DNA of 64,000 bases from Escherichia coli (GTDB taxonomy: Bacteria; Pseudomonadota; Gammaproteobacteria; Enterobacterales; Enterobacteriaceae). A model generated the notes under the pieces. It saw only the letters and a program-made list of their open reading frames with translations. It did no database searches and was not told the origin of the DNA. This document shows, piece by piece, positions 6,583 to 48,268 of this stretch. The stretch lies in assembly GCF_003334335.1 (NCBI RefSeq), contig NZ_QOWQ01000021.1; one strand, given 5' to 3'. Positions within the stretch are counted from its first letter, which is position 1. The number at the start of each line of letters is the position of its first letter. Made by a program: the position numbers and the translations under genes.

Positions 6583-8660
6583 TATTTGCCGCCAATTGTC
6601 GCCGTCATGCGGATATGTCGGTTATCAGACAGTTCCAGATTCGACAGGACCACTAACTGCGGCAAGCTGCGGCGCAGGAAGCGAGACAATAATGGTCGCA
6701 GCGCGTGGTTCACCAACAATACTGGCGGCGCACCCAGCATCTCCTGACGGGATAGCGCTTCCTGAGTTTGCGCCAGTAAACGATCCGCCAGCCCTGGCTC
6801 CAGTCCTCCCCCGCCCTGCAGCGCCTGTAGTAACAAACGTTCCAGCGGTGTATCGAGGCCAATAACATGGACTTCATCTTTGCCAGGAAACCACTGCTGG
6901 GTAATCGCCCGTCCCAACGCCACGCGCACGACGGCGGTTAATTCATGTGGATCGCTTTGGATGGGCGCATGTTCCGCCAGCGTTTCGAGAATGGTGCGCA
7001 TATCGCGAATCGGTACTTTTTCATCGAGGAGATTTTGCAGCACTTTATGCAGTGTGGTGAGCGTGACGACGCCAGGAACGAGATCTTCCGTCAGCTTTGG
7101 CATCTCCTGGGCGACGCGATCCAACAGCTGTTGCGCCTCCTGACGACCAAACAGCTCTGCGGCATGCTGGCTAATGAGGTGGTTAAGATGCGTTGCTACC
7201 ACCGTGCTGGCCTCAACCACTGTGTACCCCTGAATCTGCGCCTGTTCTTTTAGCGCACTTTCAATCCAGATAGCATTCAGGCCAAATGCCGGATCGACGG
7301 TCGCCTCACCAGGTAACGTCCCGGCAGCGGTTCCAGGGTTAATCGCCAGCCAGCGCCCCGGATAAGCATCACCACTGCCAATCTCCACGCCTTTCATCAA
7401 AATGCGATAGCGGGCAGGTTGCAGATCCATATTGTCGCGAATGTGCACCACTGGCGGCAGAAATCCCATCTCCTGGGCAAATTTCTTGCGGATACTGCGT
7501 ATACGGCCCAACAACTCACCATCCTGCTGGAAATCGACCATCGGGATCAGTCGATAACCCACTTCCATTCCCAGAGAATCTTCCAGTTGTACATCGTTCC
7601 ACGTCGCTTCGACAACGGTATTATTCTCTGCCATTTTTACCGGTTTGGGTTCGGCAGGCGCTTTTTGTTCGCGTCCGCGTATCCACCAGGCCAGCCCCAG
7701 CAATCCGGCAGTGAACAGCAAAAATACCAGGTTCGGCATTCCAGGCACCAGGCCGAGTAAACCGAGCACGGCGGCGCTTAACAACATAACGCTTGGGTTA
7801 CTGAAAAGCTGATTCACCATCTGCTCGCCAACATCCTGATCGGTGCTGACACGCGTAACGATGACCCCCGCGGCGGTAGAAATCACCAGCGCCGGAATTT
7901 GTGCCACCAGACCGTCGCCAATGGTCAATAGCGTATAACTTTCCGCCGCGTGTCCCATGCTCATGCCATGTTGCAGCACGCCGACCAGCAACCCGCCGAC
8001 AACGTTAATGACCATGATGAGGATCCCGGCGATGGCATCGCCGCGAACAAACTTACTTGCCCCGTCCATTGAGCCGTAAAAATCGGCTTCCTGAGTCACT
8101 TCGGAGCGGCGTTTTTTCGCCTCATCTTCACCAATCAATCCAGCGTTAAGGTCGGCGTCAATCGCCATCTGCTTACCCGGCATACCATCGAGAACAAAGC
8201 GCGCACCCACTTCTGCGATACGCCCGGCACCTTTGGTAATGACCATAAAGTTGATGATCACGAGAATGACAAACACCACGATACCGATAGCGAAATTGCC
8301 ACCAACGAGGAAGTGACCGAACGCTTCGACCACCTTCCCAGCCGCCGCCGCGCCGGTATGCCCTTCCATCAAAATGATACGGGTTGAAGCCACGTTAAGT
8401 GCCAGACGCAACAACGTAGTAAACAACAGAATGGTCGGAAACGCAGCAAACTCAAGCGTGCGCTGGGTAAACATCGCCACCAGCAACACCATGATCGACA
8501 AGGCAATATTGAAGGTAAACAACAGGTCGAGTATGAATGCGGGCAGTGGCAGCACCATCATCGACAAGATCAACAGGATCAAAATCGGTCCGGCAAGGAT
8601 CTGCCATTGTGTCGATTTCAGGTTTGCGGGCAGGCGCAGCATCGCGGCCAGATTACTCAT
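6582..8660 (-). CDS. flhA: flagellar type III export apparatus protein FlhA
   Basis: Track ORF 6582..8735 carries a 25-codon upstream extension; the conserved FlhA N-terminus MSNLAAMLRLPANLK starts at 8660 (692 aa). Confidence 0.95.
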   Translation of the reverse strand: MSNLAAMLRLPANLKSTQWQILAGPILILLILSMMVLPLPAFILDLLFTFNIALSIMVLLVAMFTQRTLEFAAFPTILLFTTLLRLALNVASTRIILMEGHTGAAAAGKVVEAFGHFLVGGNFAIGIVVFVILVIINFMVITKGAGRIAEVGARFVLDGMPGKQMAIDADLNAGLIGEDEAKKRRSEVTQEADFYGSMDGASKFVRGDAIAGILIMVINVVGGLLVGVLQHGMSMGHAAESYTLLTIGDGLVAQIPALVISTAAGVIVTRVSTDQDVGEQMVNQLFSNPSVMLLSAAVLGLLGLVPGMPNLVFLLFTAGLLGLAWWIRGREQKAPAEPKPVKMAENNTVVEATWNDVQLEDSLGMEVGYRLIPMVDFQQDGELLGRIRSIRKKFAQEMGFLPPVVHIRDNMDLQPARYRILMKGVEIGSGDAYPGRWLAINPGTAAGTLPGEATVDPAFGLNAIWIESALKEQAQIQGYTVVEASTVVATHLNHLISQHAAELFGRQEAQQLLDRVAQEMPKLTEDLVPGVVTLTTLHKVLQNLLDEKVPIRDMRTILETLAEHAPIQSDPHELTAVVRVALGRAITQQWFPGKDEVHVIGLDTPLERLLLQALQGGGGLEPGLADRLLAQTQEALSRQEMLGAPPVLLVNHALRPLLSRFLRRSLPQLVVLSNLELSDNRHIRMTATIGGK

Positions 8661-23022: not shown

Positions 23023-26375
<3,353 letters not shown>

Positions 26376-32515: not shown

Positions 32516-33727
32516 GTGAAAAACAGAACCCTGGGAAGTGTTTTTATCGTGGCGGGAACCACAATTGGCGCAGGCATGCTGGCAATGCCGCTGGCTGCGG
32601 CAGGTGTTGGTTTTAGCGTCACGTTAATCTTGTTGATTGGGCTTTGGGCGTTGATGTGCTACACGGCGCTATTACTGCTGGAGGTGTACCAGCATGTTCC
32701 GGCAGATACCGGTCTTGGCACGCTGGCAAAACGCTATCTGGGACGCTACGGTCAGTGGCTGACGGGCTTCAGTATGATGTTCTTAATGTATGCTCTGACT
32801 GCGGCATACATCAGCGGTGCCGGTGAATTGTTGGCCTCCAGCATCAGCGACTGGACAGGTATTTCAATGTCGGCAACCGCTGGCGTGCTGTTGTTCACTT
32901 TTGTTGCCGGTGGCGTGGTTTGTGTCGGGACATCGCTGGTCGATTTGTTTAACCGTTTTCTGTTCAGCGCCAAAATTATTTTTCTGGTGGTGATGCTGGT
33001 ATTGCTGCTACCGCATATTCACAAAGTGAATCTTTTAACCCTGCCGTTGCAACAGGGGCTGGCTCTGTCAGCAATCCCGGTGATTTTTACCTCATTTGGT
33101 TTTCACGGTAGCGTGCCGAGTATTGTCAGCTATATGGATGGCAACGTTCGTAAGCTACGCTGGGTGTTTATAACCGGTAGTGCGATCCCCCTGGTGGCAT
33201 ATATTTTCTGGCAGGTGGCAACGCTTGGCAGCATTGATTCAACAACCTTTATGGGATTGCTGGCTAATCATGCTGGATTAAACGGGCTGTTACAGGCGTT
33301 ACGCGAAATGGTGGCCTCTCCGCATGTTGAGCTGGCAGTGCATTTATTTGCTGATTTAGCCCTCGCCACGTCATTTCTCGGCGTTGCGTTAGGCTTATTT
33401 GATTATCTGGCTGATTTATTTCAGCGTTCAAATACCGTTGGTGGACGGTTGCAAACTGGTGCAATTACCTTTCTGCCGCCGTTGGCGTTTGCACTGTTTT
33501 ATCCACGAGGATTTGTGATGGCGCTGGGTTACGCCGGTGTGGCGCTGGCGGTACTGGCATTGATTATCCCTTCGCTGTTGACCTGGCAAAGCAGAAAGCA
33601 CAATCCTCAGGCGGGTTACCGGGTGAAAGGTGGTCGTCCGGCGCTGGTGGTGGTGTTTCTCTGTGGTATTGCTGTGATTGGCGTGCAATTTTTGATTGCG
33701 GCAGGGTTGTTACCAGAAGTGGGGTGA
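32516..33727 (+). CDS. tyrP: tyrosine-specific transporter TyrP
   Basis: 403 aa multi-TM aromatic amino acid permease; GTG start. Confidence 0.95.
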
Positions 33728-33788: not shown

Positions 33789-34454
33789 TTAATGCAGGCA
33801 GCACTGCTTAAATTTCTTACCACTACCGCACGGGCAAGGATCGTTACGCCCCGGTTTCTCTTCTGCTTTGATCGGTTGCTGAACAGCTTTTTCCTGCGGA
33901 TGCGCCATCCAGTACGCATGTAGATCAAGCGCCGCCAGTCGAATGGCATCTACGCTCTCTTCAAACGCTTCTGGCGACATTTTCTCTACCCGCTCGAAGT
34001 TTTCCTCAGTACCGTGCAGCGCAATCGCCTCCAGCGCTGGTTTTAACGAATCGGGCAACGTTGACCAGTCAGAAAGTGCCACGCCCCGCATATAGCCAAA
34101 GCACCACTCCTCAACAATCGTCAGCTCGCTGCCATCAACTTCTCGCAAGCCGAATAACGGCTCAAACTGCTCCGGGAATTCGTTCAGACGCTCTGCGGTA
34201 TCGGCCATATGTTGAAAAGCCAGATTCATAAAGCGCGTCATCTCTTTCTCTGACGCCCAGCGCGGCACATAGTCAGCCCCACCCCACACGGCAACCAGCC
34301 ACTGTTCCGGTTCAATCTCTTGCGGAGAACTCAACACCGCCGTCAATAAACCGTCCAGCTCCGCCACATCAAGGATGGCGTGGTCAGTGTTGTATTTGGT
34401 CAGAATATCGTCCAGCCATTCCAACTCACTTTCGTTTAACGGTCCCGTTTTCAT
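33789..34454 (-). CDS. yecA: YecA, UPF0149 protein with C-terminal SEC-C zinc motif
   Basis: 221 aa ORF ending ...[19 protein letters not shown] (SEC-C motif). Confidence 0.92.
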
Positions 34455-34810: not shown

Positions 34811-35812
34811 TTACCCTCTATTGTCAAAGGGATTCAGTTCAACAGCAGCCTCTAAATGACCCGGCGCAAAGTGTGCATAACGCATAGTCATTTTTATATC
34901 GCTATGCCCCAGTATTTTTTGCAACACAAGAATATTTCCTCCCCGCATCATAAAATGGCTGGCAAACGTATGACGTAGCACATGAGTTAATTGTCCGTCA
35001 GGAAGTTCGATCTTTGCTCTCTTAATAGCGGCGTCAAAAGCCTCATAACATGGTGAAAAAAGCGCCCCGCGTTTTTTAGGAAGCATGGCCTGCAATTGAG
35101 GTGAAATAGGTACAGTGCGGTTCTTCTTTCCTTTGGTTTTAACAAATGTGATTCGTCCAGGCAGTATTTGAGATTGCTTTAATCCCTCTGCTTCACTCCA
35201 CCTGGCACCAGTCGCAAGCCCAATACGGACGACAACACCCAAATCTTTATTCCGTGACTCATCACATGCAATCAGAAGGCGTTCAATCTCATCTGCATAC
35301 AGAAACGCCTGTTCCTTTTCTTCCTCACGAAACTTGCGAATACCTGTCAATGGATTTTCACCAGACCACTCCCCAAGGCGCTTCAGTTCAGCAAAAACAG
35401 CATGTAAATATGACTGTTCGCGATTAACGGTTGCTTCACTAAGTTTTTTCTTCCCCTTTGGATTCCATTCACCTGATAACCGCCGCTCCCTGTAGATGGC
35501 AAACATATTTTTATCAAATTGAGAAGCAAACGGATCACCCAACCTAGAACAAATCGCCTCAAGTTTAGCCTTGCGCTCTTCACCGGAAGACAACGTTTTA
35601 CCGTACATTTCAAACCAGCGAGCAACCAACTCGGAAAGACGGGGGCCAGAACCATCCTGAAACTCGCCCCCTAAATTACCGTTCATTAAACGGCGCTCAT
35701 AAGAGAGCGCCTCACCTTTAGTAGCAAACTGCTTACGAATGCGTTTTCCTGCTGCTCCGTAGGGATAGCATTCACAGAGCCATTTACCAGTAGATAGTTT
35801 ACGAACAGACAT
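34811..35812 (-). CDS. int: P2-type tyrosine integrase
   Basis: Track ORF 34811..35887; start MSVRKLSTGKW aligns with the P2 Int N-terminus; catalytic R...HxxR...Y motifs (ATGARWSEA, HVLRHTFASH, MRYAHFAP). Confidence 0.9.
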   Translation of the reverse strand: MSVRKLSTGKWLCECYPYGAAGKRIRKQFATKGEALSYERRLMNGNLGGEFQDGSGPRLSELVARWFEMYGKTLSSGEERKAKLEAICSRLGDPFASQFDKNMFAIYRERRLSGEWNPKGKKKLSEATVNREQSYLHAVFAELKRLGEWSGENPLTGIRKFREEEKEQAFLYADEIERLLIACDESRNKDLGVVVRIGLATGARWSEAEGLKQSQILPGRITFVKTKGKKNRTVPISPQLQAMLPKKRGALFSPCYEAFDAAIKRAKIELPDGQLTHVLRHTFASHFMMRGGNILVLQKILGHSDIKMTMRYAHFAPGHLEAAVELNPFDNRG

Positions 35813-35846: not shown

Positions 35847-36104
35847 TTAAGATGGTTGCTCAACCCGCATAAAGAGCTTTTCATCAACTAACTGCTCCCA
35901 TTCATCGGGATCAAGCTCCCAAGAAGGAGCCGACATATCATCCTCATCCCCCTCATTTACAAAAGTAACCAAATAGAAAGGAAGATCTCCGGGCTCATCG
36001 TCATCGTCCTTGACAATATGAACATTAGTAACAACTATACGATTAGATGGATTAACTTTAGATACATATAAACCAATTAATGGAATTTGCGGATTAGTTA
36101 CCAT
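35847..36104 (-). CDS. hypothetical highly acidic 85 aa protein (cargo between repressor and integrase)
   Basis: ATG with upstream agagg SD; product has runs of D/E (VKDDDDEPGDLPFYLVTFVNEGDEDDMSAPSWELDPDEWEQLVDE); no family recognised. Confidence 0.6.
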   Translation of the reverse strand: MVTNPQIPLIGLYVSKVNPSNRIVVTNVHIVKDDDDEPGDLPFYLVTFVNEGDEDDMSAPSWELDPDEWEQLVDEKLFMRVEQPS

Positions 36105-36302
36105 AATTCATTTACCTCTTTGGACTTCCTCATGAACAAAGACTTACTTTTCTTTAAGACCATAACAAGTAATTCACACCATTTCTTACATCACTAGTTG
36201 CCCCCTCCCACCTTTGTCAGCTCGCTTAATTTATCTTTTTCATTTCTTTTAAAGTCGGTAAAGCAAGCTTTTGTCACAATATCTTTCTCCAACAACTATC
36301 TA

Positions 36303-36947
36303 TCAGAAAAGAACACTGCCTAATAAAACACCAACAACGAAACACATTCCTGTTTCTTTCGGGTATTTTCTAATTATTTGCTGAAAATTCATCTGTAATT
36401 GACTACCGGCAGAATTGTTGGCAGTTAATTTCTTTTCTCCTTCCACTGATTGTTGGTCTAACCAGGAAAGAGCCATCTGAAGCTGAGAACGAGTAAGATC
36501 GTTTAAGCGACCCGTTCCGAAATTGATATGGCAATAGCGGATAAGTTTTTGACGAAGCACTCCATCTTCACTATTACGAAGTAAAATACTTACAAGCGCC
36601 TTACGCGCATCATGATCTTTACATCGTTCAAGCATCGCACACAGAAAGCTCTCTGCGGTCTTATATTGATTCATTGTTATATCATCAATACTGTCTACAC
36701 CAATCTCTGCATGCAATTTTTGCCAAATAATAAACGCCTCGGTATTGCTGGCATCTACAATAGCAGCAACTAATCTATTTAATGCCTTCCGTTGCCCCTT
36801 AAGTAAGGGGCGTGGATCACTGTTATTGCTCGAAGGAATTGCGATATTGACGGTATGAGAGCCATCATATCGCCCTATCTGAATATTCTTTTCTTGGTAA
36901 TCTCGCCCAGCAATACGATTATCTGAACCGTTTGAGTTGACCGTCAT
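36303..36947 (-). CDS. hypothetical 214 aa protein with C-terminal hydrophobic anchor (cargo between repressor and integrase)
   Basis: Long ORF with good SD (ggaggtgg before ATG), C-terminal TM-like tail MCFVVGVLLGSVLF; N-terminus shares NRIAGRDY motif with the upstream repressor C-terminus. Confidence 0.7.
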   Translation of the reverse strand: MTVNSNGSDNRIAGRDYQEKNIQIGRYDGSHTVNIAIPSSNNSDPRPLLKGQRKALNRLVAAIVDASNTEAFIIWQKLHAEIGVDSIDDITMNQYKTAESFLCAMLERCKDHDARKALVSILLRNSEDGVLRQKLIRYCHINFGTGRLNDLTRSQLQMALSWLDQQSVEGEKKLTANNSAGSQLQMNFQQIIRKYPKETGMCFVVGVLLGSVLF

Positions 36948-36962
36948 GCCACCTCCTTGCTA

Positions 36963-37367
36963 TCACTTACCCTTTGTTTCGTTATAGTCACGGCCTGCGA
37001 TGCGGTTATTCCCGCCAGAGATATTTAACCCTCCCCCTGATGACTGACTCTCCTTTTCAGTGACTGCACCTTTCAAAGCACCAATCACCGCGTTTTTCAC
37101 ATCTAGTGAGGCACTCCGAAAACGTGTGATCAACTCCTGCTCATCATCGTTATAAGTTTCAGGTGAATGAATTCCCAACACGACATACTGAACATCAAGG
37201 CCAAAACGCGACAACGCTGATAAGTACGCCGCATCAGGAAAGCTATCCCCTTTCTCATATCTAAGTTGGGTTAACTTTTTAACCCCACCAATATCACTCA
37301 TAGCGACTTGGCTAAGACCCAGCCGTTCCCTTTCCTCACGCAACCGTTGGCCAATATCATTTTTCAT
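36963..37367 (-). CDS. XRE-family HTH repressor (immunity repressor, P2 C / CI equivalent)
   Basis: 134 aa; N-terminal HTH_XRE (IGQRLREERERLGLSQVAMSDIGGVKKLTQLRYEKG); leftward, divergent from the cox-like gene as in P2 immunity regions. Confidence 0.8.
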   Translation of the reverse strand: MKNDIGQRLREERERLGLSQVAMSDIGGVKKLTQLRYEKGDSFPDAAYLSALSRFGLDVQYVVLGIHSPETYNDDEQELITRFRSASLDVKNAVIGALKGAVTEKESQSSGGGLNISGGNNRIAGRDYNETKGK

Positions 37368-37376
37368 ACAAAAACC

Positions 37377-37405
37377 TTGACAGGTATCTTTTTTGATACC
37401 AAAAT
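37377..37405 (+). promoter_or_regulatory. candidate early promoter with embedded operator palindrome GGTATC-N6-GATACC
   Basis: TTGACA -35 hexamer, 17 bp spacer containing the perfect inverted repeat ggtatcttttttgatacc, then caaaat; lies between divergent repressor and cox-like genes. Confidence 0.5.
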
Positions 37406-37442
37406 ACTTTCATGAGCCATTAGATGAACACAATATACCACT

Positions 37443-37661
37443 ATGAAACAAGTTGTTCACGACACCAGATCACGGATTCCGCGTAACACAGCTACAGGAC
37501 CGCGACTGGCACTTCGATTGTCAGCAGAAGAGCGAGCCGTCATTGATGAAATGGCAACTAAAGAACAGCGCTCATCCTCTAACATGGCACGCATGATCTT
37601 CCTTCGTGGCCTTGAGATTATCCAGAAAGAGCAAAACCAATCTTCATGCTCAGGAGGTTAA
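37443..37661 (+). CDS. ribbon-helix-helix DNA-binding protein (Cox/Cro/Apl-equivalent first early gene)
   Basis: 72 aa; RLALRLSAEERAVIDEMATKEQRSSSNMARMIFLRGLE fits a strand-helix-helix pattern; first rightward gene after the repressor. Confidence 0.6.
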   Translation: MKQVVHDTRSRIPRNTATGPRLALRLSAEERAVIDEMATKEQRSSSNMARMIFLRGLEIIQKEQNQSSCSGG

Positions 37662-40338: not shown

Positions 40339-41319
40339 ATGAGCAAAGAACTGTTATCCGGTACGCCACTGAAATGGGTGGGCGGAAAAAGCCGCATCAT
40401 GAACACACTGAAGGCGCACCTGCCAGAAGCCGACTGTCTGGTTGAGCCGTTCGTGGGCGGCGCATCGGTATTCATGAACACCAGTTACAAGCGTTACATC
40501 CTGGGTGATTCCAATGGTGCGCTGATTAATTTCTACCGGCAAGCTAGGGACAACACCGACAGCCTGATCGACGAGGCGAAAACCCTGTTCCTGAACCACA
40601 ACAACAGGGGTGACTATCTCATCATTCGCGAAACCTTTAACGCAGAGAATCATGCCTTCCTGAACAGCAGAACGGGAATAAGCGACCGCCGTGAACTGCG
40701 ACTGGCCGCCATGTTTTTGTACCTGAACCGACACAGCTTTAACGGTTTGTTCCGCGTGAACGGAAAAGGCGATTTTAACGTGCCTTTCGGCTGCTACCGC
40801 AAGCCCTACTTCCCTGAGCGTGAAATCCGCGCATTTGCAGACAAGGCAAACAGCACCCGAACGCTGCTTATCCACGCAGATTTTAAGGATACGCTGAACT
40901 CTGCCAGTCACCTGTTCGGCATGGGCAACACGCTTTGCGTGTACTGCGATCCCCCTTACCTGCAATTCAGTGGCCGGGACAATTTTACCGCCTACGGAAA
41001 ACCATTCGATGAAGACGAGCACGTTCGTCTGAGGGCAGCGCTTGACCGCCTTTCACAGGAAACGGGCGGCATGACCAGCATCACCATCTCCAATTCCGAC
41101 ACACCGGAAACACGACGCATTTATCGGGGTTACCGGATGAACTGCATACAGGCACCACGAAGCGTTGGCGCAAGAACCCGGGAATCAGCACCGGAGGTTA
41201 TCGCCACCCTGAGACAGTGCGACGCCTGCGGTCACCATGGCGGTGGCTACTGCCCGGACTGCGGACCTGTAACGGGAGATGCAACTTACAGCGTGATGTT
41301 TACCCCTGCCAGTACGTGA
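40339..41319 (+). CDS. Dam-family DNA N6-adenine methyltransferase with C-terminal Cys-rich extension
   Basis: 326 aa; FxGxG SAM motif (VEPFVGGASVF) and catalytic DPPY; C-terminus CDACGHHGGGYCPDCGP looks like a zinc ribbon. Confidence 0.85.
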   Translation: MSKELLSGTPLKWVGGKSRIMNTLKAHLPEADCLVEPFVGGASVFMNTSYKRYILGDSNGALINFYRQARDNTDSLIDEAKTLFLNHNNRGDYLIIRETFNAENHAFLNSRTGISDRRELRLAAMFLYLNRHSFNGLFRVNGKGDFNVPFGCYRKPYFPEREIRAFADKANSTRTLLIHADFKDTLNSASHLFGMGNTLCVYCDPPYLQFSGRDNFTAYGKPFDEDEHVRLRAALDRLSQETGGMTSITISNSDTPETRRIYRGYRMNCIQAPRSVGARTRESAPEVIATLRQCDACGHHGGGYCPDCGPVTGDATYSVMFTPAST

Positions 41320-41354
41320 ATAAACAGATGAATCAGTAACACCGGAGTCAGGAA

Positions 41355-41591
41355 ATGAATAGCGAAAACAACAAAGAGCTTTTGCGGGAATTGCGTCTCA
41401 TCGCCCGTGCACATGAGGAAGCAGCAAAAGTTATCGCTGCTGCTGGAAGACCAGAGCTCGTTATCGCTTCAGCAATCTCACTGAGGATCACCATGGAAGC
41501 AATCCGGGTGATTCAGGATCAGGAAAGTGAAATCGCCACCCTTAAAAAGCAGCTCAACGAGAAATCTGCCGGGCAAAGGAGTCAGCAATGA
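41355..41591 (+). CDS. hypothetical protein, 78 aa
   Basis: Track ORF; predicted helical; early operon. Confidence 0.45.
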   Translation: MNSENNKELLRELRLIARAHEEAAKVIAAAGRPELVIASAISLRITMEAIRVIQDQESEIATLKKQLNEKSAGQRSQQ

Positions 41592-41806
41592 TCCAGGAAT
41601 CAACCGTTATCCGGTTCACAGCCAACGGCCGTCAGTACGAGGTAGACGAAGCCCTGATTGATTACAGCATGACCCGCCAGAGCTCACGCTTTCAGGACAT
41701 GTACCACATCCGGCTAATCAACGGTTCGTCTTTCAACGCCACAAACGTGGAAGAAGTACGCGTGCTGACAGCAACACGCAACACGGGAGGTAAAGCGTGG
41801 CAGTGA
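41588..41806 (+). CDS. hypothetical protein, 72 aa
   Basis: Track ORF overlapping neighbours by a few nt, indicating translational coupling. Confidence 0.45.
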   Translation: MIQESTVIRFTANGRQYEVDEALIDYSMTRQSSRFQDMYHIRLINGSSFNATNVEEVRVLTATRNTGGKAWQ

Positions 41807-42147
41807 TTTATATCGCCGGCCCCATGACCGGATACGAAGACTGCAATAGAACGGCGTTTTGCCTGGAGGATCTGAAGCTTCGGTGCGCCGGAAACATCGT
41901 TCTTAATCCTGCCGTACTGCCTGACGGATTAAGCCAGCAGCAGTACATGAGTATTTGTATTCCGATGCTCATGTGTGCCGATGCCATTTACTTACTGGAT
42001 GGATGGGAAGAATCCGCTGGCGCACGGGCTGAGTACGCAATGGCGCTCAAACTGAACATGCCAGTGTCATTCCCGGAAAACCGGGCAGCCGTCGAAACCG
42101 TCGCGCAGCTGCTTCACAAATCAAAAGCCACACAGGCGACTGAGTAA
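41797..42147 (+). CDS. DUF4406 / nucleoside 2-deoxyribosyltransferase-like protein
   Basis: 116 aa; VIYIAGPMTG ... LLDGWEESAGARAEYAMALKLNMPV resembles the small Rossmann-like DUF4406 family common in prophages. Confidence 0.6.
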   Translation: MAVIYIAGPMTGYEDCNRTAFCLEDLKLRCAGNIVLNPAVLPDGLSQQQYMSICIPMLMCADAIYLLDGWEESAGARAEYAMALKLNMPVSFPENRAAVETVAQLLHKSKATQATE

Positions 42148-42585
42148 CCGACCGGAGATCGAAACATGATTGCGCGAAGAGCTGCCAACCGCCTCACAGG
42201 CTTTATTCCAGGCAAGGTTGATCATGCACTCCATCACGGCGCTGTCACTTTCCTCAACAAAGGAGAGGCGCGCAATCATGCATTCTGGGGTGAGCACGTG
42301 GCGCTGGCTAATCAGTCTTTGATAGCTAAGCGCCTGCCATTCAGCCTTTTCAGCTCTGATAGAAAGAGAGGCAGCCATGACCTGCCACACCAGAAAGAGC
42401 ACCACACTGGCGAAAACAAACGTTGCGCTGTCGCAAAAAATGAATGCGGCAACAATCGCAAGGAAAGCGCTAATCCTCAGAACCAAGGAAGCGCGACGGT
42501 GGAGAAGGCTTGTCATGTGTTCAAGCCAGTAGCTGTACCACAGGTCAAAAAGAATTTCGTAATCAGAAGGGAGCTTATCACTCAT
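42121..42585 (-). CDS. hypothetical membrane protein (about 154 aa, 2 TM) encoded antisense to the early operon
   Basis: Track ORF 42121..42768; first ATG at 42585 gives MSDKLPSDYEILFDLWYSYWLEHM... with two hydrophobic helices; its 3-prime end overlaps the DUF4406 gene convergently by about 27 nt. Confidence 0.55.
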   Translation of the reverse strand: MSDKLPSDYEILFDLWYSYWLEHMTSLLHRRASLVLRISAFLAIVAAFIFCDSATFVFASVVLFLVWQVMAASLSIRAEKAEWQALSYQRLISQRHVLTPECMIARLSFVEESDSAVMECMINLAWNKACEAVGSSSRNHVSISGRLLSRLCGF

Positions 42586-42765
42586 CAGAAACACCCCGCG
42601 TATGCAGACAATCACCAGTTGCCAGGTGATATTAATTCGCAACATTCTAACCACATCAGCACGCAACACAAAAACCGCTTGCCAGCGCTCGTCGTGTCGG
42701 GTTACATTTCCGCTGCACCTCATAAAACGGGTGCCGGGATTTCCACCCCGCTGACAAACGAAGCG

Positions 42766-42790
42766 CACAGCCGCGCCAGCGGTTTTTTTG
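42766..42790 (+). terminator. terminator-like hairpin plus T-run in non-coding gap
   Basis: ccgc-gcca-gcgg followed by ttttttt. Confidence 0.35.
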
Positions 42791-43258
42791 TGCGTACTGT
42801 ATCGCCACGTCTTTTTCGCGTCAGAATTATGGCGGGGCGTACAGGGCCGACTTCGGTCGGGCCGGTTTCTTCGTTTGCCGGTTGTGGAAACCCTGTACGT
42901 CTCGCCACCCTGAGTTTTCCACCTCTGGTTGGTGAGTTTTCAAAATTCACAAACGAAGAGGCCACACCATGGCAAACCGCAAGCAACAGCGCGCCCGCGC
43001 TGAGCGTCTTCACATCCACAGCGAAATCAACCGCAGACTTTTCCGCGCAACACGCGTCGCGCAAATCATGCATATCAACATGCTGCATGAGCGCACGCAC
43101 GCACTATCAAACCGTTACTGCGCTGCCGTCTTCAGCTATCTGGCCGAAGACCTGGCAGAACTGCAAAGCCTCATCAACCAGCACCGATAAACCACATCCG
43201 GAAGCTATCCCACACCTGCACGCGGGAGGCTTCCGCACATCTGTTACCGGAGGTTCTC

Positions 43259-43675
43259 ATGAAGAGCGTTAAGGGACTTTCAGATATTCAGGACTTTTTT
43301 AACTGGATGTGGGCGGAGGATCCCCTGCTGGCTTCCCGCCTGAACGACTGGCACGACTGTTACCGTCGCGCCTGTAAACAGGCTGCCCGCAGCGTCACCA
43401 CATACGGGGATTTCTCCTTCACCGTTGACGATCGTTACCGCGTGGACGTGAAAGGTGATGGTGATGGCTTTGGTTTATTTCACATCAACGGCATCGACAG
43501 CACCACCATCAGCTGGTCGTCATCAGAGATGGCGCTTGTGCTGGAGATGACAAACCACAGCGTGGCCGTGAAAGGTATATACACCGCAGAAGACTTTATC
43601 GGTGAATACCAGCGCCTTCTCATGCTGTACCGCGCGGCGTTTCAGGCGGCAACTGCCGGGGAGTGCGACGCATGA
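43259..43675 (+). CDS. hypothetical protein, 138 aa (upstream of A; B/orf-equivalent position)
   Basis: Track ORF; stop overlaps the start of gene A (ATGA). Confidence 0.55.
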   Translation: MKSVKGLSDIQDFFNWMWAEDPLLASRLNDWHDCYRRACKQAARSVTTYGDFSFTVDDRYRVDVKGDGDGFGLFHINGIDSTTISWSSSEMALVLEMTNHSVAVKGIYTAEDFIGEYQRLLMLYRAAFQAATAGECDA

Positions 43676-46185
43676 GCGACCATAACGCACAACTGGCGTA
43701 CCCGTGGAACGCCCCGCTGCAAGTTATCGATCCTGAAACGTTCGGCAGAGCGCAACCAACCGCATTACGCCAGGTCATTCAGAGCTACATCAACGAAGAC
43801 ATTCGCATTGATGCCAGACTAGATGAAGAAACCGTCGCCTTCCTGACAAACACAGACGAAGGCAAGCGAATTAATTTGCATCTTCACCGCGACGAAGAGC
43901 GTCGGATCAGACTGGAAAAAGTGGTGCGGCGCAAACGCGAATATCCGCCCACGCTGGTATCGAAAGCCATGGCAGAACTTCGCGCCCTGCCCTCGTTTCT
44001 TGGTAACGCGCTCATTCGTGATCTGGCGCGTTTAAACCGCAAACAGCAAAGCGCCCGCCATGAAGGCGTGAAAAACAACAATACACACGTGGCTGATAAC
44101 TTTGTTCGCCGTGGACTGCGCACACGCCTGAAACGCATCGAACAGGTGAATGAACGCTTCGCCACGACAGCATTCAAAGCCACCGCAGCGCGTCATCGCC
44201 TTGATGAATTACTCATGCTGCCACAACTCAACCGTGATCAAATTCAGCGCCTTGCCACACTAACGGCGGCGGCATTTTCCACCGAACTGGAACGCATATG
44301 TGATGAAGTTACTGAGCGGACAGGAAAAGGTGACGATAACCTGTTCACCTGGTTGCTGACTTACCAGCAGCTGGCGCGCATGGCGTTAAAACTGGGCGTG
44401 ACCCCACCATACTGGCCGTCACTCGAGATCAGACGTGACCGCCGCACGGCACCAGACCCTGAACTGGTACCGGGTGCGGTAATGCGTATCACCTGCGCCA
44501 CCTGGTGGAACAACCAGCTGCGCCACCTCGCAGATCTCTGGCGGGAGGAATTACTGCGTGCCGCCGGAAGAGTATCGCGCAAGGCATCCCCCTACATCAG
44601 TCATGAGTCACTCCAGGAATTCCGGGAGAAACGCCAGCGCACCCGTGATTTTCTCAAAAGCTGGGACATTGAAAACGAAGACGGTGAACGCCTGAGTCTG
44701 GAGGACGTGTACTGGTCAGGGCTGGGGAATCCGCGCAACCGCCGCAACGAGATGATGGCCTGCGTCAGAGGGATGGAACAGGTCGCCGAATCGCGTGGTG
44801 ACTCCGCGTTCTTCGTGACAGTAACCTGCCCTTCCCGCTTTCACAGCGTGAACGAGGACGGCAGCCTGAACCCGAAATACAACGGTGCCACCGTGCGCGA
44901 TGCCAGTGATTATCTGGTTTACGACGTCTTTGCAGCTGCAAGAAAAAAACTCAACAAAGAAGGCCTGAGCTGGTACGGGGTGCGCACCGTTGAGCCACAC
45001 CATGACGGCACACCACACTGGCACATGCTAGTATTCACTTCCCCGGACAATGAAGAACGCATCATTGAAATCATGCGTGACGCAGCAATCAAATCAGATC
45101 GCGCAGAACTGGGGAATGATATTTCTCCGCGCTTCAAGTGCGAAAAAATCGACCCGGCAAAAGGCACACCGGCAAGCTACATCGCAACCTATATCGGCAA
45201 GAACCTGGACACCAGCACCTTCCATAACAATGACCCGAAAACCGGCAAACCTTACGCCGATAAAGAATCGGGAAAAACCATGGCGGAAACCGTGGAAAAC
45301 GCCATTGCCTGGGCGAGTCTCCATCGCATCCGTCAGTTCCAGTTCTTCGGAATCCCGCCCCGCCAGGTATGGCGTGAACTCCGCCGCCTTGCCGGACAGA
45401 TGGAGCGCAACCCCGCATCACCGAAGCGCCTGGACCATGACGACATTGACGCCATTCTGGCCGCCGCTGACGTGGGGTGTTTTGCCACCTACATCAACCG
45501 TCAGGGCGGCGTGCTCATTCCACGCAACCTGTACCTGATCCGCACCGCATACGAAACCGCAGATGAGGCCAATGATTACGGGGAATTTCCTCAACGTATC
45601 TGGGGAATATGCGCCCCGTCGCTCGGCGAGCGCTACACCATCTGTACCCATCCGGACGAATGGAAACTGGTCAGAAAAGAAGCGAAAACCGACAACAGCA
45701 CGGACGAGGATTTTGACGTTGGGGGCGGCTTCGCCGCACCTTGGACTCGTGGCAATAACTGTCCCCATGATGAAAAAACAGACACCGGAGAGGGTAAAAC
45801 CCCACCACCGGAAACCAGGAAAGAACAAAAACTGGTCGTCCCGGGAGGTGATTTGGGTGAGTGGTTAAGGTCACTGACCCCCACAGAGCGAAAACAACTC
45901 ACCAGGCAGCTGAAAGATGCGCCATCTGACACAAAAACCGTGAAAACCGGCGGCCCCACCACGCCCGATGACGTCATACATGTGCGTACAGCATTGCCGC
46001 TGACTGACGTCACCACCACCGTAATCAAGTCGGCACTGAGCGCGACGGGCGAGGAGCTACACAGTGGCGCAGCACTTTCCGTACACAGAGGTGCACGCGT
46101 TCGCCTGCCTGACGGGCGGATTGTGCACTGGGATGAGAAATCACGAAGCCTGGTGGCAGCAGATCAACCGGAGGTGAACCCATGA
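43672..46185 (+). CDS. A: rolling-circle replication initiator endonuclease (P2 gpA family)
   Basis: Track ORF 43663..46185; HUH-type motif HWHMLVF and twin-tyrosine motif ASYIATYIGKN as in P2 A. Confidence 0.88.
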   Translation: MSDHNAQLAYPWNAPLQVIDPETFGRAQPTALRQVIQSYINEDIRIDARLDEETVAFLTNTDEGKRINLHLHRDEERRIRLEKVVRRKREYPPTLVSKAMAELRALPSFLGNALIRDLARLNRKQQSARHEGVKNNNTHVADNFVRRGLRTRLKRIEQVNERFATTAFKATAARHRLDELLMLPQLNRDQIQRLATLTAAAFSTELERICDEVTERTGKGDDNLFTWLLTYQQLARMALKLGVTPPYWPSLEIRRDRRTAPDPELVPGAVMRITCATWWNNQLRHLADLWREELLRAAGRVSRKASPYISHESLQEFREKRQRTRDFLKSWDIENEDGERLSLEDVYWSGLGNPRNRRNEMMACVRGMEQVAESRGDSAFFVTVTCPSRFHSVNEDGSLNPKYNGATVRDASDYLVYDVFAAARKKLNKEGLSWYGVRTVEPHHDGTPHWHMLVFTSPDNEERIIEIMRDAAIKSDRAELGNDISPRFKCEKIDPAKGTPASYIATYIGKNLDTSTFHNNDPKTGKPYADKESGKTMAETVENAIAWASLHRIRQFQFFGIPPRQVWRELRRLAGQMERNPASPKRLDHDDIDAILAAADVGCFATYINRQGGVLIPRNLYLIRTAYETADEANDYGEFPQRIWGICAPSLGERYTICTHPDEWKLVRKEAKTDNSTDEDFDVGGGFAAPWTRGNNCPHDEKTDTGEGKTPPPETRKEQKLVVPGGDLGEWLRSLTPTERKQLTRQLKDAPSDTKTVKTGGPTTPDDVIHVRTALPLTDVTTTVIKSALSATGEELHSGAALSVHRGARVRLPDGRIVHWDEKSRSLVAADQPEVNP

Positions 46186-46586
46186 CACGATTCCATTGTG
46201 TACTCCAGCGCCATGATTTCAGCGCCATCATGAGTGGACGCATTCCGGCACTGACGCTGAGCGGCGTCAGTGTTCGACCACAGCCAGGCGACGAACTGGA
46301 GATCACGATCGCAAACCCCGATCGCAGCACAGATACCGTCATGACCGACATCCTGACTGCAAGAATCAACACCGACAGAAGCGCATTCATCGTTGCCGTG
46401 CGCCCTCGTCGCGCCATATCAGAGCCTGAACCACTGACTCCCGTAGGAAAAATCATGCAGGCATACCACGAAAAACAGACCAGAAAACTCAACGAAGAAC
46501 TGGCAAGAACGCTGGCCGTCGTTAACCGAAAAGCGGCAATTGTCCGCTATGTGCATTCGGCCGCCAGCAGGCAATCACACAGGTAA
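46182..46586 (+). CDS. hypothetical protein, 134 aa (first gene after A)
   Basis: Track ORF; ATGA overlap with the stop of A. Confidence 0.5.
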   Translation: MTRFHCVLQRHDFSAIMSGRIPALTLSGVSVRPQPGDELEITIANPDRSTDTVMTDILTARINTDRSAFIVAVRPRRAISEPEPLTPVGKIMQAYHEKQTRKLNEELARTLAVVNRKAAIVRYVHSAASRQSHR

Positions 46587-46595
46587 CAAAAGACC

Positions 46596-46805
46596 ATGAA
46601 CATGACCAGAAACAGCAAACCGAAGGAGCACACCATGAACGACATCAGGAGGATCAGCGACAAAGAGCTTACGAAAATGATTGAGTCGGCGCAGCAGCTG
46701 CTTTCACGACGAAATCCGGTTGTGGAAGAAACATGGTGGGAAAATTTACTGGCAGCACTGACCGAACTCCGCGAACGCCGGAACAACGAAGGAGCCGCCA
46801 AATGA
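46596..46805 (+). CDS. hypothetical protein, 69 aa
   Basis: Track ORF; stop overlaps the next start. Confidence 0.45.
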   Translation: MNMTRNSKPKEHTMNDIRRISDKELTKMIESAQQLLSRRNPVVEETWWENLLAALTELRERRNNEGAAK

Positions 46806-47140
46806 AGACACCCAGAATGACCGGAAAGGTAATCATTTTACGCTACCTGGAAACGCACGCACGCTTCAGCACACCAGAGCTGGTTGAAAAACTGGGCGTG
46901 AAAAGGACCATCATTAATCAGGCCGCCGGAAAGATGGTACGCGAAGGGCTGCTGGTTGTGGACGGGTACACGGACAAGATAACGCATTACCGGAAGCCAA
47001 CGGAAAAGGAACGACTGGAGCTGGAGCGGCGGGCTGAACAGCAACAAAAGCCGTCCGTAATCCAGGACTGCAAGCGAAGCGAAATCATGAAGCGAATTCT
47101 GTTTATCTACGGCGCTGGCGAAGAGCTGCCAGTCATCTAA
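46802..47140 (+). CDS. winged-helix DNA-binding protein (about 112 aa)
   Basis: Internal ATG of track ORF 46733..47140 overlapping the previous stop; ILRYLETHARFSTPELVEKLGVKRTIINQAAGKMVREGLLVVDG resembles a MarR/winged-helix fold. Confidence 0.55.
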   Translation: MKTPRMTGKVIILRYLETHARFSTPELVEKLGVKRTIINQAAGKMVREGLLVVDGYTDKITHYRKPTEKERLELERRAEQQQKPSVIQDCKRSEIMKRILFIYGAGEELPVI

Positions 47141-47172
47141 CCCCAACAATAAAACCAACACGGGAGACAAAT

Positions 47173-47490
47173 ATGCCAACACAGGTTGCAACAGAGGGAC
47201 GACTGGCAGCAGACCCGAACACAAGGAGAACAACCAAAGGAACCAACGTCACAACGGCACAACTGGCGGTATCACTACCCTGCCATGGAGCAGAACAGCC
47301 AACCACAATGTGGCTTTACTTTATTGCATTCGGGAAGCAGCACGAAGAACTGGCAAAACACAGAAAAGGCGATCTGATTCTGGTGCACGGAAACTTGCAG
47401 GTAAACAGGTATCAGGACAAGTACGGGCAACAGAAAGAGAGCTGGCAGTTGCTGGCGCAAAGCATTATCAGCTCAAGAACCGGGCGATGA
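47173..47490 (+). CDS. SSB-like OB-fold protein lacking the acidic C-terminal tail
   Basis: 105 aa; pattern G-L-DP--R-T--G-----LA ... W--V--FGK-AE ... KG--V-V-G-L---RY-D--G mirrors the SSB N-terminal OB domain; no DDDIPF-type tail. Confidence 0.6.
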   Translation: MPTQVATEGRLAADPNTRRTTKGTNVTTAQLAVSLPCHGAEQPTTMWLYFIAFGKQHEELAKHRKGDLILVHGNLQVNRYQDKYGQQKESWQLLAQSIISSRTGR

Positions 47491-47508
47491 CTTCTCGCAT
47501 GTTACCCT

Positions 47509-47552
47509 CAGCAGCGAGGGTAACACAGGATTTCTTTTTTCAGTCAAACCGA
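47509..47552 (+). terminator. rho-independent terminator ending the rightward A operon
   Basis: Perfect inverted repeat gttaccctc agcagc gagggtaac followed by a T-rich run (tttcttttttc). Confidence 0.75.
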
Positions 47553-48268
47553 AATCGGCCGCTTGTCGCGTATGCATAGGTGACCACCGCACCCAGCGCA
47601 TTCACACGCTTCTTCACATAAATCACATTACCATCCTGATAGTCACCGTATGGGTAGCAAATAAATATTGTTTTTTGCAAATCAGGATCATCAACAAATG
47701 CCCCTGAACAACTTTTTGAGCTACCGCGACTGTACTCATAGGGAGCGGAATAGAATGAATCTTCACCCGGAAGAAAATATATCAGCGTAACCAGGAGGGT
47801 AAACAGAATCATCCAGGTAAGAAGGCACATACCCGAAAAAAACTTAAGATACGATGTAACCCCGGTAAATTTAGACCGATCAACCAGGTTCTTTTTCAAC
47901 AGGCACAGTGAGGCAAAAACCGAAAGCACCACAGACACTGAAACAAGGCAGTTTGTCGTGAACGAATAAAGGTAGGTAATTCTGTAAACATCGTTTCGCC
48001 ACCAAATAAAAAGAAAAATCCCCCCCAAAACAGAAAGCGTGACAAAAGTTAAATAAGGATATGAGTAATTTTTCACAGTTCTCACCCGGCAGTCTCCCAC
48101 TGATTCAGACAGATGAATATCATCACCACCTGCCACAAAAAATCGCAAGATCAAAACTGCACAAAAGCGCACGAAATTGCACAATTTTTCTAATGTACTT
48201 TTTCCCCATTCCGCCCGGTAACGGCGCTGGCTGAGGCCGGTTTGCACGGTGCACGAAAAACGAGGCAA
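47540..48268 (-). CDS. hypothetical multi-pass membrane protein in the A-Q cargo hotspot (start uncertain; likely GTG near 48076, about 178 aa)
   Basis: Track ORF with three hydrophobic helices and about 75 aa C-terminal soluble domain; body looks markedly AT-rich by eye; candidate GTG start preceded by ggtgag SD. Confidence 0.6.
   Translation of the reverse strand: MPRFSCTVQTGLSQRRYRAEWGKSTLEKLCNFVRFCAVLILRFFVAGGDDIHLSESVGDCRVRTVKNYSYPYLTFVTLSVLGGIFLFIWWRNDVYRITYLYSFTTNCLVSVSVVLSVFASLCLLKKNLVDRSKFTGVTSYLKFFSGMCLLTWMILFTLLVTLIYFLPGEDSFYSAPYEYSRGSSKSCSGAFVDDPDLQKTIFICYPYGDYQDGNVIYVKKRVNALGAVVTYAYATSGRFRFD

Follow-up and report, generated by a model that had tools for sequence, protein, structure and literature searches.

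The stretch analysed here, referred to as the window, comprises 64,000 nucleotides of Escherichia coli contig NZ_QOWQ01000021.1 (assembly GCF_003334335.1). Host chromosome (tyrP, 32516-33727; yecA, 33789-34454) is followed in the window by a P2-like (Peduoviridae) prophage, in which the integrase gene int is the first gene at the left end. Two open reading frames (ORFs), encoding proteins of 214 and 85 aa and named ORF214 and ORF85, are located between int and the immunity repressor gene. In P2 (NC_001895), the repressor gene C (25591-25890) has Pc upstream and is followed by int (24462-25475) with nothing between them, as an earlier sequence-only reading of the window had stated. Both ORFs were present as that reading described them, on the minus strand and each with a Shine-Dalgarno (SD) sequence. 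Its view of them as two inserted non-core genes was correct for ORF85, which occupies a variable slot, and had to be abandoned for ORF214, which was linked to the repressor in all scorable loci. The features of the region are listed below.

37432..37459, minus strand: Pc-like promoter, TGAACA-16-TATATT with extended TG, reading the repressor operon (consensus scan only)
37377-37405, plus strand: Pe-like promoter, facing the Pc-like promoter and reading Arc-like and Cox-like genes
36963..37367, minus strand: immunity repressor, 134 aa, with an XRE-type helix-turn-helix (HTH), a helix and a C-terminal tail; phrog_8, RstR/DicA-like HTH; "transcriptional regulator" in RefSeq
36978..37028, minus strand: repressor C-terminal tail motif LNISGGNNRIAGRDYNE, mirrored at the ORF214 N-terminus
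36303..36947, minus strand: ORF214, ATG start, Flk_N family, WP_001537125, with a C-terminal hydrophobic anchor
36891..36941, minus strand: ORF214 N-terminal motif VNSNGSDNRIAGRDYQE, low-confidence or coil in the monomeric model
36432..36815, minus strand: ORF214 Flk repeat domain (residues ~45-172), five helices, predicted local distance difference test (pLDDT) score 88-95
36306..36350, minus strand: putative anchor at the ORF214 C-terminus, a hydrophobic stretch of the MCFVVGVLLGSVLF type (residues 200-214) in which G206 and G210 are conserved (GxxxG)
36105..36302, minus strand: non-coding spacer of 198 nt separating ORF214 from ORF85, particular to the DUF8087 cassette of E. coli
35847..36104, minus strand: ORF85, small acidic DUF8087 protein, WP_001537123, occupying the variable cargo slot
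34811..35812, minus strand: tyrosine integrase, 333 aa (RefSeq), 34 nt past ORF85, without an SD of its own

The promoters were called by a consensus scan and, as a class, were not above shuffle expectation; their facing arrangement matches that of Pc and Pe in P2. The ORF214 start codon is preceded by a strong SD (AAGGAGGTGGC ahead of ATG), and ORF85 starts with ATG behind the SD AGAGG. No terminator-like site was found on the minus strand from the repressor to int. Since both ORFs are co-oriented with the repressor and int and no such site separates them, their expression from the lysogenic transcript is plausible, in agreement with the position assigned to the slot earlier.

ORF214 was assigned to phrog_5825 (E 6e-92) and to Pfam family PF27202 (Flk_N), for which precomputed matches exist for the identical protein (P0001) and for all 120 listed homologues. 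A Pfam-A profile scan matched neither ORF214 nor ORF85, the library copy used being older than PF27202 and PF26332, the family of ORF85. Homologues of ORF214 with 57-62% identity were found in Klebsiella, Serratia, Enterobacter, Erwinia, Raoultella, Kosakonia and other genera. The ratio of nonsynonymous to synonymous substitution rates (dN/dS) was 0.20-0.26 for ORF214 and 0.11 for ORF85 (one divergent pair). Both are real conserved genes under purifying selection, and neither matched an excisionase or integration host factor, a result that would have argued against the earlier reading of the two genes. Profile searches of PDB sequences gave nothing below E 0.4.

Approximately 100 related loci were collected from Klebsiella and Erwinia genomes, 13 GTDB species representatives, 80 IMG/VR contigs and, via DUF8087, further sequences; the scan of GTDB species representatives gave 13 loci and that of viral contigs was far richer. 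The layout could be scored in 91 loci, representing 59 distinct repressor/partner pairs, and in all 91 the order was repressor, Flk_N gene, variable interval, int. The pair was present in at least ten enterobacterial genera (Escherichia, Klebsiella, Serratia, Enterobacter, Erwinia, Kosakonia, Hafnia, Edwardsiella, Arsenophonus and others). The gap from the repressor stop to the Flk_N start was 7-22 nt in 57 of the 59 pairs, the exceptions being Erwinia, where a YebY-like gene is inserted, and Arsenophonus. The integrases of these loci were 74-100% identical and the repressors only 33-100% identical to that of the window, so several immunity types are represented. The order being fixed across loci and immunity types, ORF214 is, as judged from gene order, a constant companion of this class of XRE-type repressors and not an insertion or moron. 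The gene was also common: at least 519 of 5,426 complete E. coli genomes matched part of a 1,751-bp query from the int start to the repressor, most of the listed matches spanning the repressor and most of ORF214, and the Klebsiella pneumoniae version of Flk_N was found in 1158 blocks of the assembly collection index. The full arrangement including ORF85 was present in only 10 of the 5,426 genomes.

At 36948-36977, the repressor stop and the ORF214 start share a reading frame (..KGK * * QGGG M..), and in most loci the two genes are separated by 9, 15 or 18 nt, all divisible by three. Such spacing fits an ancestral single ORF, and it may be chance.

The last ~20 residues of the repressor (LNISGGNNRIAGRDYNE) are mirrored by the first ~20 residues of ORF214 (VNSNGSDNRIAGRDYQE), and such a mirror was seen in all 59 distinct pairs. 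The consensus is '..INVSGxGNR[VI]AGRD[YF]NENKK' at the repressor C-terminus and 'MxVNSxGxxNRxAGRD[FY]xEN' at the partner N-terminus. The two motifs of the window are identical at 11 of 17 residues and use the same codon at only one of these 11. Matching residues with different codons speak for selection acting at the peptide level rather than for a recent duplication or gene conversion, and gene conversion was therefore disfavoured as the source of the motif in the window; in other pairs, shared codons were more frequent (5/10 to 8/12). The ORF214 N-terminus can also be read as 11-residue repeats (NRIAGRDYQEK / NIQIGRYDGSH), as can that of the Hafnia partner (NRAASRDFHEN / NVQAGRDVISI). The six-frame translation of the window contains no further copy of the motif, and a profile search of 1.84 billion representative proteins returned only 136 related clusters.

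In distant lineages, Mu-like phages among them, both partners change jointly: FAARDIVN/FAGRDIVN in locus L110, VTTGDVVN/VAAGDIKN in L109 and VGQSIAGNV/VGQAVAGDL in L111. The corresponding termini are as follows.

L110: repressor tail SQTFNAPISGGEFAARDIVNH; partner N-terminus TQEFNNQIHDGQFAGRDIVNN
L109: repressor tail QQFNGPVGTVTTGDVVN; partner N-terminus QQFHGAVEQVAAGDIKN
L111: repressor tail QVFHGKVGQSIAGNVDQRGAKVGV; partner N-terminus QVFREDVGQAVAGDLVNSGVVINI

When six lineages were compared, the cognate pairing had the top score of all 720 permutations, and in four of the six none of 500 shuffles reached the observed score. Invariable linkage and a covarying terminal motif together point to a role in the immunity or lysogeny circuit itself. 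The earlier proposal of ORF214 as a candidate lysogenic-conversion gene is not upheld by these two properties.

The repressor/Flk_N pair was also found next to transposase genes in contigs of Mu-like phages. On an inovirus-like contig (L115, 2531-3250), a single protein of 239 aa (P0278) combines HTH_XRE, a G/N-rich strand motif and Flk_N, has no anchor and is read divergently from Rep_1 and Phage_DNA_bind genes. In the Ralstonia Peduoviridae phage YO188_2 (ON170321; L102, 2441-3401), the 155-aa repressor ends with ...MVFHGSVGDVKNISGDYNET..., and the next gene (122 aa) starts with MKSRFEFHGEVKKVINGTTIF and encodes a central transmembrane (TM) segment and no Flk_N domain. This locus, a weak match, suggests that the principle of a C-terminus mirrored by the next N-terminus may extend beyond Flk_N partners.

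ORF214 consists of three parts: a low-confidence N-terminal segment, a high-confidence helical Flk repeat and a short, putative hydrophobic anchor at the C-terminus. Residues 46-165 align to residues 27-146 of E. coli K-12 Flk (27% identity over 120 residues, E 3e-9), and the same segment aligns a second time to Flk 151-220, so ORF214 holds one of the two Flk repeats. The AlphaFold2 helices of the repeat are at residues 50-67, 71-82, 92-125, 129-143 and 153-174 (pLDDT 88-95), and residues 166-195 form a variable linker. The C-terminal hydrophobic anchor noted in the earlier reading was recovered at residues 200-214, the only hydrophobic stretch of the protein (Kyte-Doolittle mean 2.4), with a conserved GxxxG.

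Flk ("Fluke", RflH; b2321 in E. coli, also present in Salmonella) is tail-anchored; from the cytoplasm it inhibits the flagellar export switch, acting on a membrane machine (PMC13344023). ORF214 has one homologous repeat and is predicted to resemble Flk in having a cytoplasmic body with a hydrophobic anchor at its C-terminus, and both give the impression of regulators that bind rather than catalyse. If ORF214 were a phage copy of Flk, it would alter flagellar type III secretion in the lysogen; the aligned residues, the predicted common anchor design and the match to the NCBIfam Flk equivalog NF007987 (E 1e-15) are in line with this. That match scored 57.8 bits against a cut-off of 353 and covered residues 38-168 of ORF214, corresponding to positions 21-151 of the 339 in the profile. 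Flk has 331-333 aa and two tandem repeats, whereas ORF214 has 214 aa, one repeat and a different N-terminus, in which an extra motif copies the repressor tail. Moreover, ORF214 is prophage-borne, always stands beside an XRE repressor and not flagellar genes, and is common in non-flagellate hosts, being very frequent in prophages of Klebsiella pneumoniae. This species is normally non-flagellate. With the equivalog score missed and the gene abundant in Klebsiella, a flagellar role has next to no likelihood, and it was rejected on architecture, score and host range.

In the reading that we favour, at a probability of about 45%, ORF214 would be a membrane partner linked to the repressor, either engaging it or competing with its tail. 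The fixed linkage, the covarying mirror with its differing codons, the fusion protein, the presence of the pair in Mu-like contigs, the analogy with Flk and the variable slot behind ORF214 speak for it. The lysogeny operon would run from Pc through the repressor, ORF214 and a cargo slot (here ORF85) to int, with ORF214 dedicated to its XRE repressor class. The C-terminal tail is expected to lie in the inner membrane and the body of the protein in the cytoplasm, where it would present a flexible N-terminal motif of ~20 residues and the helical Flk repeat, which resembles a small protein-binding bundle. The two motif copies would bring ORF214 and the repressor into one interaction: the proteins may associate, by homotypic strand pairing or higher-order assembly, or they may compete for a single site. 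In both cases, some of the repressor would be tethered or titrated at the membrane, and this would tune immunity, induction or the establishment of lysogeny. Mlc held by PtsG is a known case of a repressor controlled by membrane sequestration. The analogy concerns the proposed logic, a soluble repressor titrated by a membrane-bound partner; the two systems have no homology, and ORF214 differs in being a same-operon partner with a copy of the repressor tail, for which sequestration is a proposal.

Docking was modelled with AlphaFold2 on a fused chain in which a flexible linker joins ORF214 residues 1-195 to the 36 C-terminal residues of the repressor; the paired alignment comprised 37 cognate pairs. 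Several results, those of this model among them, weigh against the favoured reading. In the fused chain, low-confidence coil was predicted for the N-terminal motif (pLDDT 39-51) as well as for the repressor tail (pLDDT 34-43). The hydrophobic tail of ORF214 has just 14-15 residues, which is short for a membrane span. Fold searches gave three-helix-bundle matches with moderate Z scores, and designed helical proteins matched nearly as well. The observed covariation score was reached by 7 of 500 shuffles for the Mu-like contig L113 and by 6 of 500 for the Ralstonia locus L102. In the sublineage of L112 (2070-3175) and L108 (2-944), the strand-type tail is absent and a helical motif is shared instead. 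Among cultured phages in the GenBank phage set, none had the ORF214 gene except one prophage-derived record, phage 520873.

The repressor of L112 and L108 has a different, helical C-terminal domain, and the shared motif D..RLAR[IL]..LL occurs midway along the repressor and again at the partner N-terminus (P0182, P0187, P0202, P0203). In the record of phage 520873 (NC_049344; L001, 1039-3081), the integrase is split into two coding sequences, and the Flk_N gene is unannotated and was matched in three pieces; either frameshifts or sequencing errors would account for these broken genes.

The modelling result does not favour stable 1:1 docking, as far as a single-chain model, which is blind to oligomers and to a third partner, can show. 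Because both motifs were coil, the version in which the repressor tail docks on the Flk domain as a pseudo-ligand was down-weighted. The model leaves room for higher-order or homotypic assembly, for recognition by a third factor and for an amyloid-type templating pair.

A third factor, such as a protease or adaptor recognising a degron, or a satellite or phage antirepressor, might read both motifs, which would not bind each other. ORF214, bound to the membrane, would then serve as a decoy or competitor and so protect or expose the repressor. The lack of self-docking in the model fits this, as do the terminal position and predicted flexibility of the motifs, which are like those of degrons or short linear motifs. 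In Enterobacterales, the HTH varies and the motif hardly does, as would be expected if one shared factor read it, and P4-like satellites that derepress P2-like helpers are abundant (10.64898/2026.02.27.708500). No candidate factor was identified in the window, where the motif has no further copy, and direct matching is the simpler explanation for partners that covary in unrelated phage types. We consider this explanation rather unlikely.

The motif pair might also be of the amyloid signalling type (HET-s/NWD2, Bab/Agp), with cross-beta templating switching the repressor off, leading to induction, or the membrane protein on, leading to cell death. The genomic signature is the same, namely adjacent genes with a short G/N/S-rich motif at the C-terminal end of the first and the N-terminal end of the second, matched within pairs and covarying; such a terminal-motif signature was used to find amyloid pairs such as Bab/Agp of E. 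coli (10.1101/2024.11.07.622273). Like HET-s/NWD2, BASS and Bab/Agp, the pair of the window shares a short terminal motif that varies between lineages, and the 11-residue repeats agree with such a nature; the motif is unstructured in the monomer model, which would be compatible with a cross-beta fold and equally with its absence. The architecture is different: BASS-type pairs consist of an NLR/TPR sensor and a pore-forming effector (Bell/HeLo), whereas an XRE HTH repressor stands here beside a Flk_N protein with a C-terminal anchor. The motif is also shorter and more charged than amyloid signalling motifs, and one sublineage shares a helical motif in its place. On balance, this type of signalling is improbable.

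It is quite unlikely, if slightly less so, that the motifs form a templating (prion-like or amyloid-type) or strand-zipper switch by which a membrane-anchored sensor captures or converts the prophage's own repressor. If this were true, repression would answer a membrane or infection signal, and induction or abortive death could follow without RecA cleavage or a soluble antirepressor. The pair would then be a mobile "split repressor" common to P2-like, Mu-like and filamentous phages.

The predicted membrane association raises a further alternative, that ORF214 is a conventional protein of the superinfection exclusion (Sie) type, which would act without the repressor to keep the DNA of other phages out of the cell, the motif being incidental. 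A membrane-associated product encoded between repressor and integrase and expressed in the lysogen would be in the classical Sie position, occupied by Sie2009 of lactococcal phages, Ltp of TP-J34 and Glo of K139. ORF214 has the lysogeny-module position of these proteins and is predicted to share their membrane association and lysogen expression; Ltp and Glo are exposed outside the cytoplasm. The hotspot between cI and int in K139-like phages (PMC9122126) is compatible with such a role, and phrog_6521, a weak relative, is filed as "moron ... membrane protein". Exclusion genes such as the three above are usually variable, dispensable accessories, whereas ORF214 is fixed beside the repressor across genera and immunity types at 57-62% identity, and its motif covaries with the repressor tail. 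The bulk of ORF214 would face the cytoplasm, with nothing periplasmic, an anchorless single-chain fusion of HTH and Flk_N exists, and neither ORF214 nor ORF85 matched a PADLOC defence model. For these reasons, exclusion is an unlikely function of ORF214.

The interval just before int, proposed earlier as a site of inserted genes, is indeed a variable cargo slot. Among 60 distinct intervals from Flk_N to int (300-1900 bp), at least eight unrelated protein clusters were found, as follows.

YebY-like secreted proteins, 115-118 aa, the commonest in E. coli
BRCT + WYL-like proteins, 287-294 aa
DUF8087 proteins, 81-107 aa
Proteins of 291-297 aa that end in a BRCT-like segment, a weak match to the BRCT region of DNA ligases
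Secreted proteins, ~200 aa
A Zn-finger and TM protein pair
Two singletons

The slot has the conserved flanks, unrelated interchangeable content and mosaic breakpoints of a cargo hotspot, and it is not enriched in recognised anti-phage systems. No cluster matched a named defence system; PADLOC gave no match for ORF85 or the YebY-like cargo and only weak PDC-S48/WYL domain matches for the BRCT cargo. In locus L109 (3097-4362), the repressor/Flk_N pair is followed by a 123-aa protein and a 290-aa protein with a TIR_2 domain, which suggests from domain content that defence-type cargo can follow the pair.

In pairwise comparisons, the mosaic breakpoints were located in the conserved YCHINFGTGRLNDL block inside ORF214 and at the int start. 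By these positions, the exchanged cassette comprises the linker and anchor of ORF214 together with the cargo gene, and recombination would swap ORF85-type cassettes between the conserved middle of ORF214 and the int start. The cargo stop overlaps the int start codon in several loci. Given this overlap and the missing SD of int in the window, int may be translationally coupled to the preceding gene.

The idea of a cargo slot is already known in outline. A hotspot between cI and int of K139-like phages was reported by Rousset et al. 2022 (PMC9122126), and in P2-like prophages a hotspot was reported "between integrase and primase" (10.64898/2026.02.27.708500). Both are like the slot of the window in having unrelated interchangeable cassettes just upstream of int in the lysogeny operon. 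The slot differs from them in that no cassette matches a named defence system and in that its repressor-side boundary is a conserved partner gene whose 3' end, encoding the linker and anchor, is exchanged with the cargo.

ORF85, the cargo of the window, belongs to phrog_17127 and to Pfam PF26332 (DUF8087), which is carried by all 23 ORF85 homologues and named in the RefSeq entry WP_001537123 ("DUF8087 domain-containing protein"). The concern that it is an N-terminal extension artefact of int was checked and dismissed: ORF85 is in a different frame from int and therefore not an extension of it, and it has its own SD and family. A longer, TTG-started int ORF reaching 35887 is a mechanical artefact. 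The extremely acidic composition noted earlier was confirmed, with 19 acidic and 5 basic residues, a pI of 4.05 and a net charge of about -14 over 85 residues. The conserved core of the family is GLYVS..R.VVT.V..DDDDEEGD..FFLVTFV.EGDEDDMSAPS.E.DP.EW, and the predicted fold is an SH3/Tudor-like small beta-barrel of five strands and one helix (pLDDT 76.7), for which matches in the AlphaFold database were family members only.

The sequence-only reading had likened this composition to DNA-mimic anti-restriction proteins of the Ocr/ArdA kind. The analogy rests on dense negative charge, including the acidic runs DDDDE and EGDEDD kept in the family, and did not extend to sequence or fold. Ocr and ArdA are elongated, largely helical dimers, whereas a barrel with one helix is predicted for ORF85; no Pfam, PDB-sequence or PADLOC search related it to a DNA mimic, and structural matches stayed within its own family. 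In addition, anti-restriction would be useful at entry and not from the lysogenic operon of a prophage. A DNA-mimic role is thus very improbable. From its genomic position, ORF85 is better regarded as interchangeable cargo and as a candidate lysogenic-conversion or competition factor.

DUF8087 is nearly confined to the slot (Escherichia, Edwardsiella, Klebsiella, Serratia, Raoultella, Izhakiella), the exception being a degraded Yersinia prophage. In the other genera, it starts ~10-40 nt after the Flk_N stop, compared with the 198-nt spacer of E. coli. A remnant of another cargo type was considered for this spacer and discarded, as it had no DNA similarity beyond its own cassette type. In two contigs of E. 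coli type (L064 and L065, ~6854-7108), DUF8087 is apparently truncated to 31 in-frame codons, so that decay of the cargo may be under way in some prophages.

The nearest GenBank phage record to the prophage was the prophage-derived "Escherichia phage 520873" (Xuanwuvirus), with 87% identity across the immunity region; the structural genes were ~72-74% identical to those of phage P88 and its relatives. A 72-aa plus-strand ORF at 37443-37661 encodes an Arc-like repressor (phrog_3431, E 2e-28). In at least one RefSeq genome that has the same sequence, NZ_AP045180, a 45-aa minus-strand "hypothetical protein" is annotated antisense to it instead (37457-37594 of the window), probably a mis-call. Genes without a P2 counterpart in the early region (40339-43272) encode a DNA methyltransferase (40339-41319), a nucleoside 2-deoxyribosyltransferase-like protein (41797-42147) and a 368-aa protein with a regulator-like domain (42166-43272). 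At 46182-48268, in the known P2 hotspot that separates gpA (43663-46185) from the portal gene, are three genes: one for a 134-aa protein (phrog_14984), one for an exclusion protein resembling Ren (46733-47140, phrog_142) and, on the minus strand, one for a 242-aa protein (47540-48268). No tRNA gene was found by ARAGORN in the whole window (1-64000), though the prophage adjoins yecA, which in K-12 is followed by leuZ-cysT-glyW. The right prophage end and any tRNA attachment site must lie beyond the window.

In the searchable literature, no description was found of a repressor-linked Flk_N partner or of a covarying mirror motif, and no paper mentioning PF27202 or PF26332. The nearest known kinds are a repressor accessory factor and a terminal-motif gene pair, and there is a modest chance that the pair is of a more unusual nature. 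P2-like prophages are among the commonest in Enterobacterales, and the upkeep of lysogeny and exit from it are not known to have been studied in this large lineage. The cargo slot, precisely bounded by the conserved middle of ORF214 and int, can be mined for lysogenic-conversion and anti-phage genes, DUF8087 included. If the favoured reading is true, an obligatory membrane-anchored partner with a copy of the repressor tail would be a new layer of lysogeny control, and the Ralstonia and helical-motif cases suggest that the mirror principle goes beyond Flk_N.

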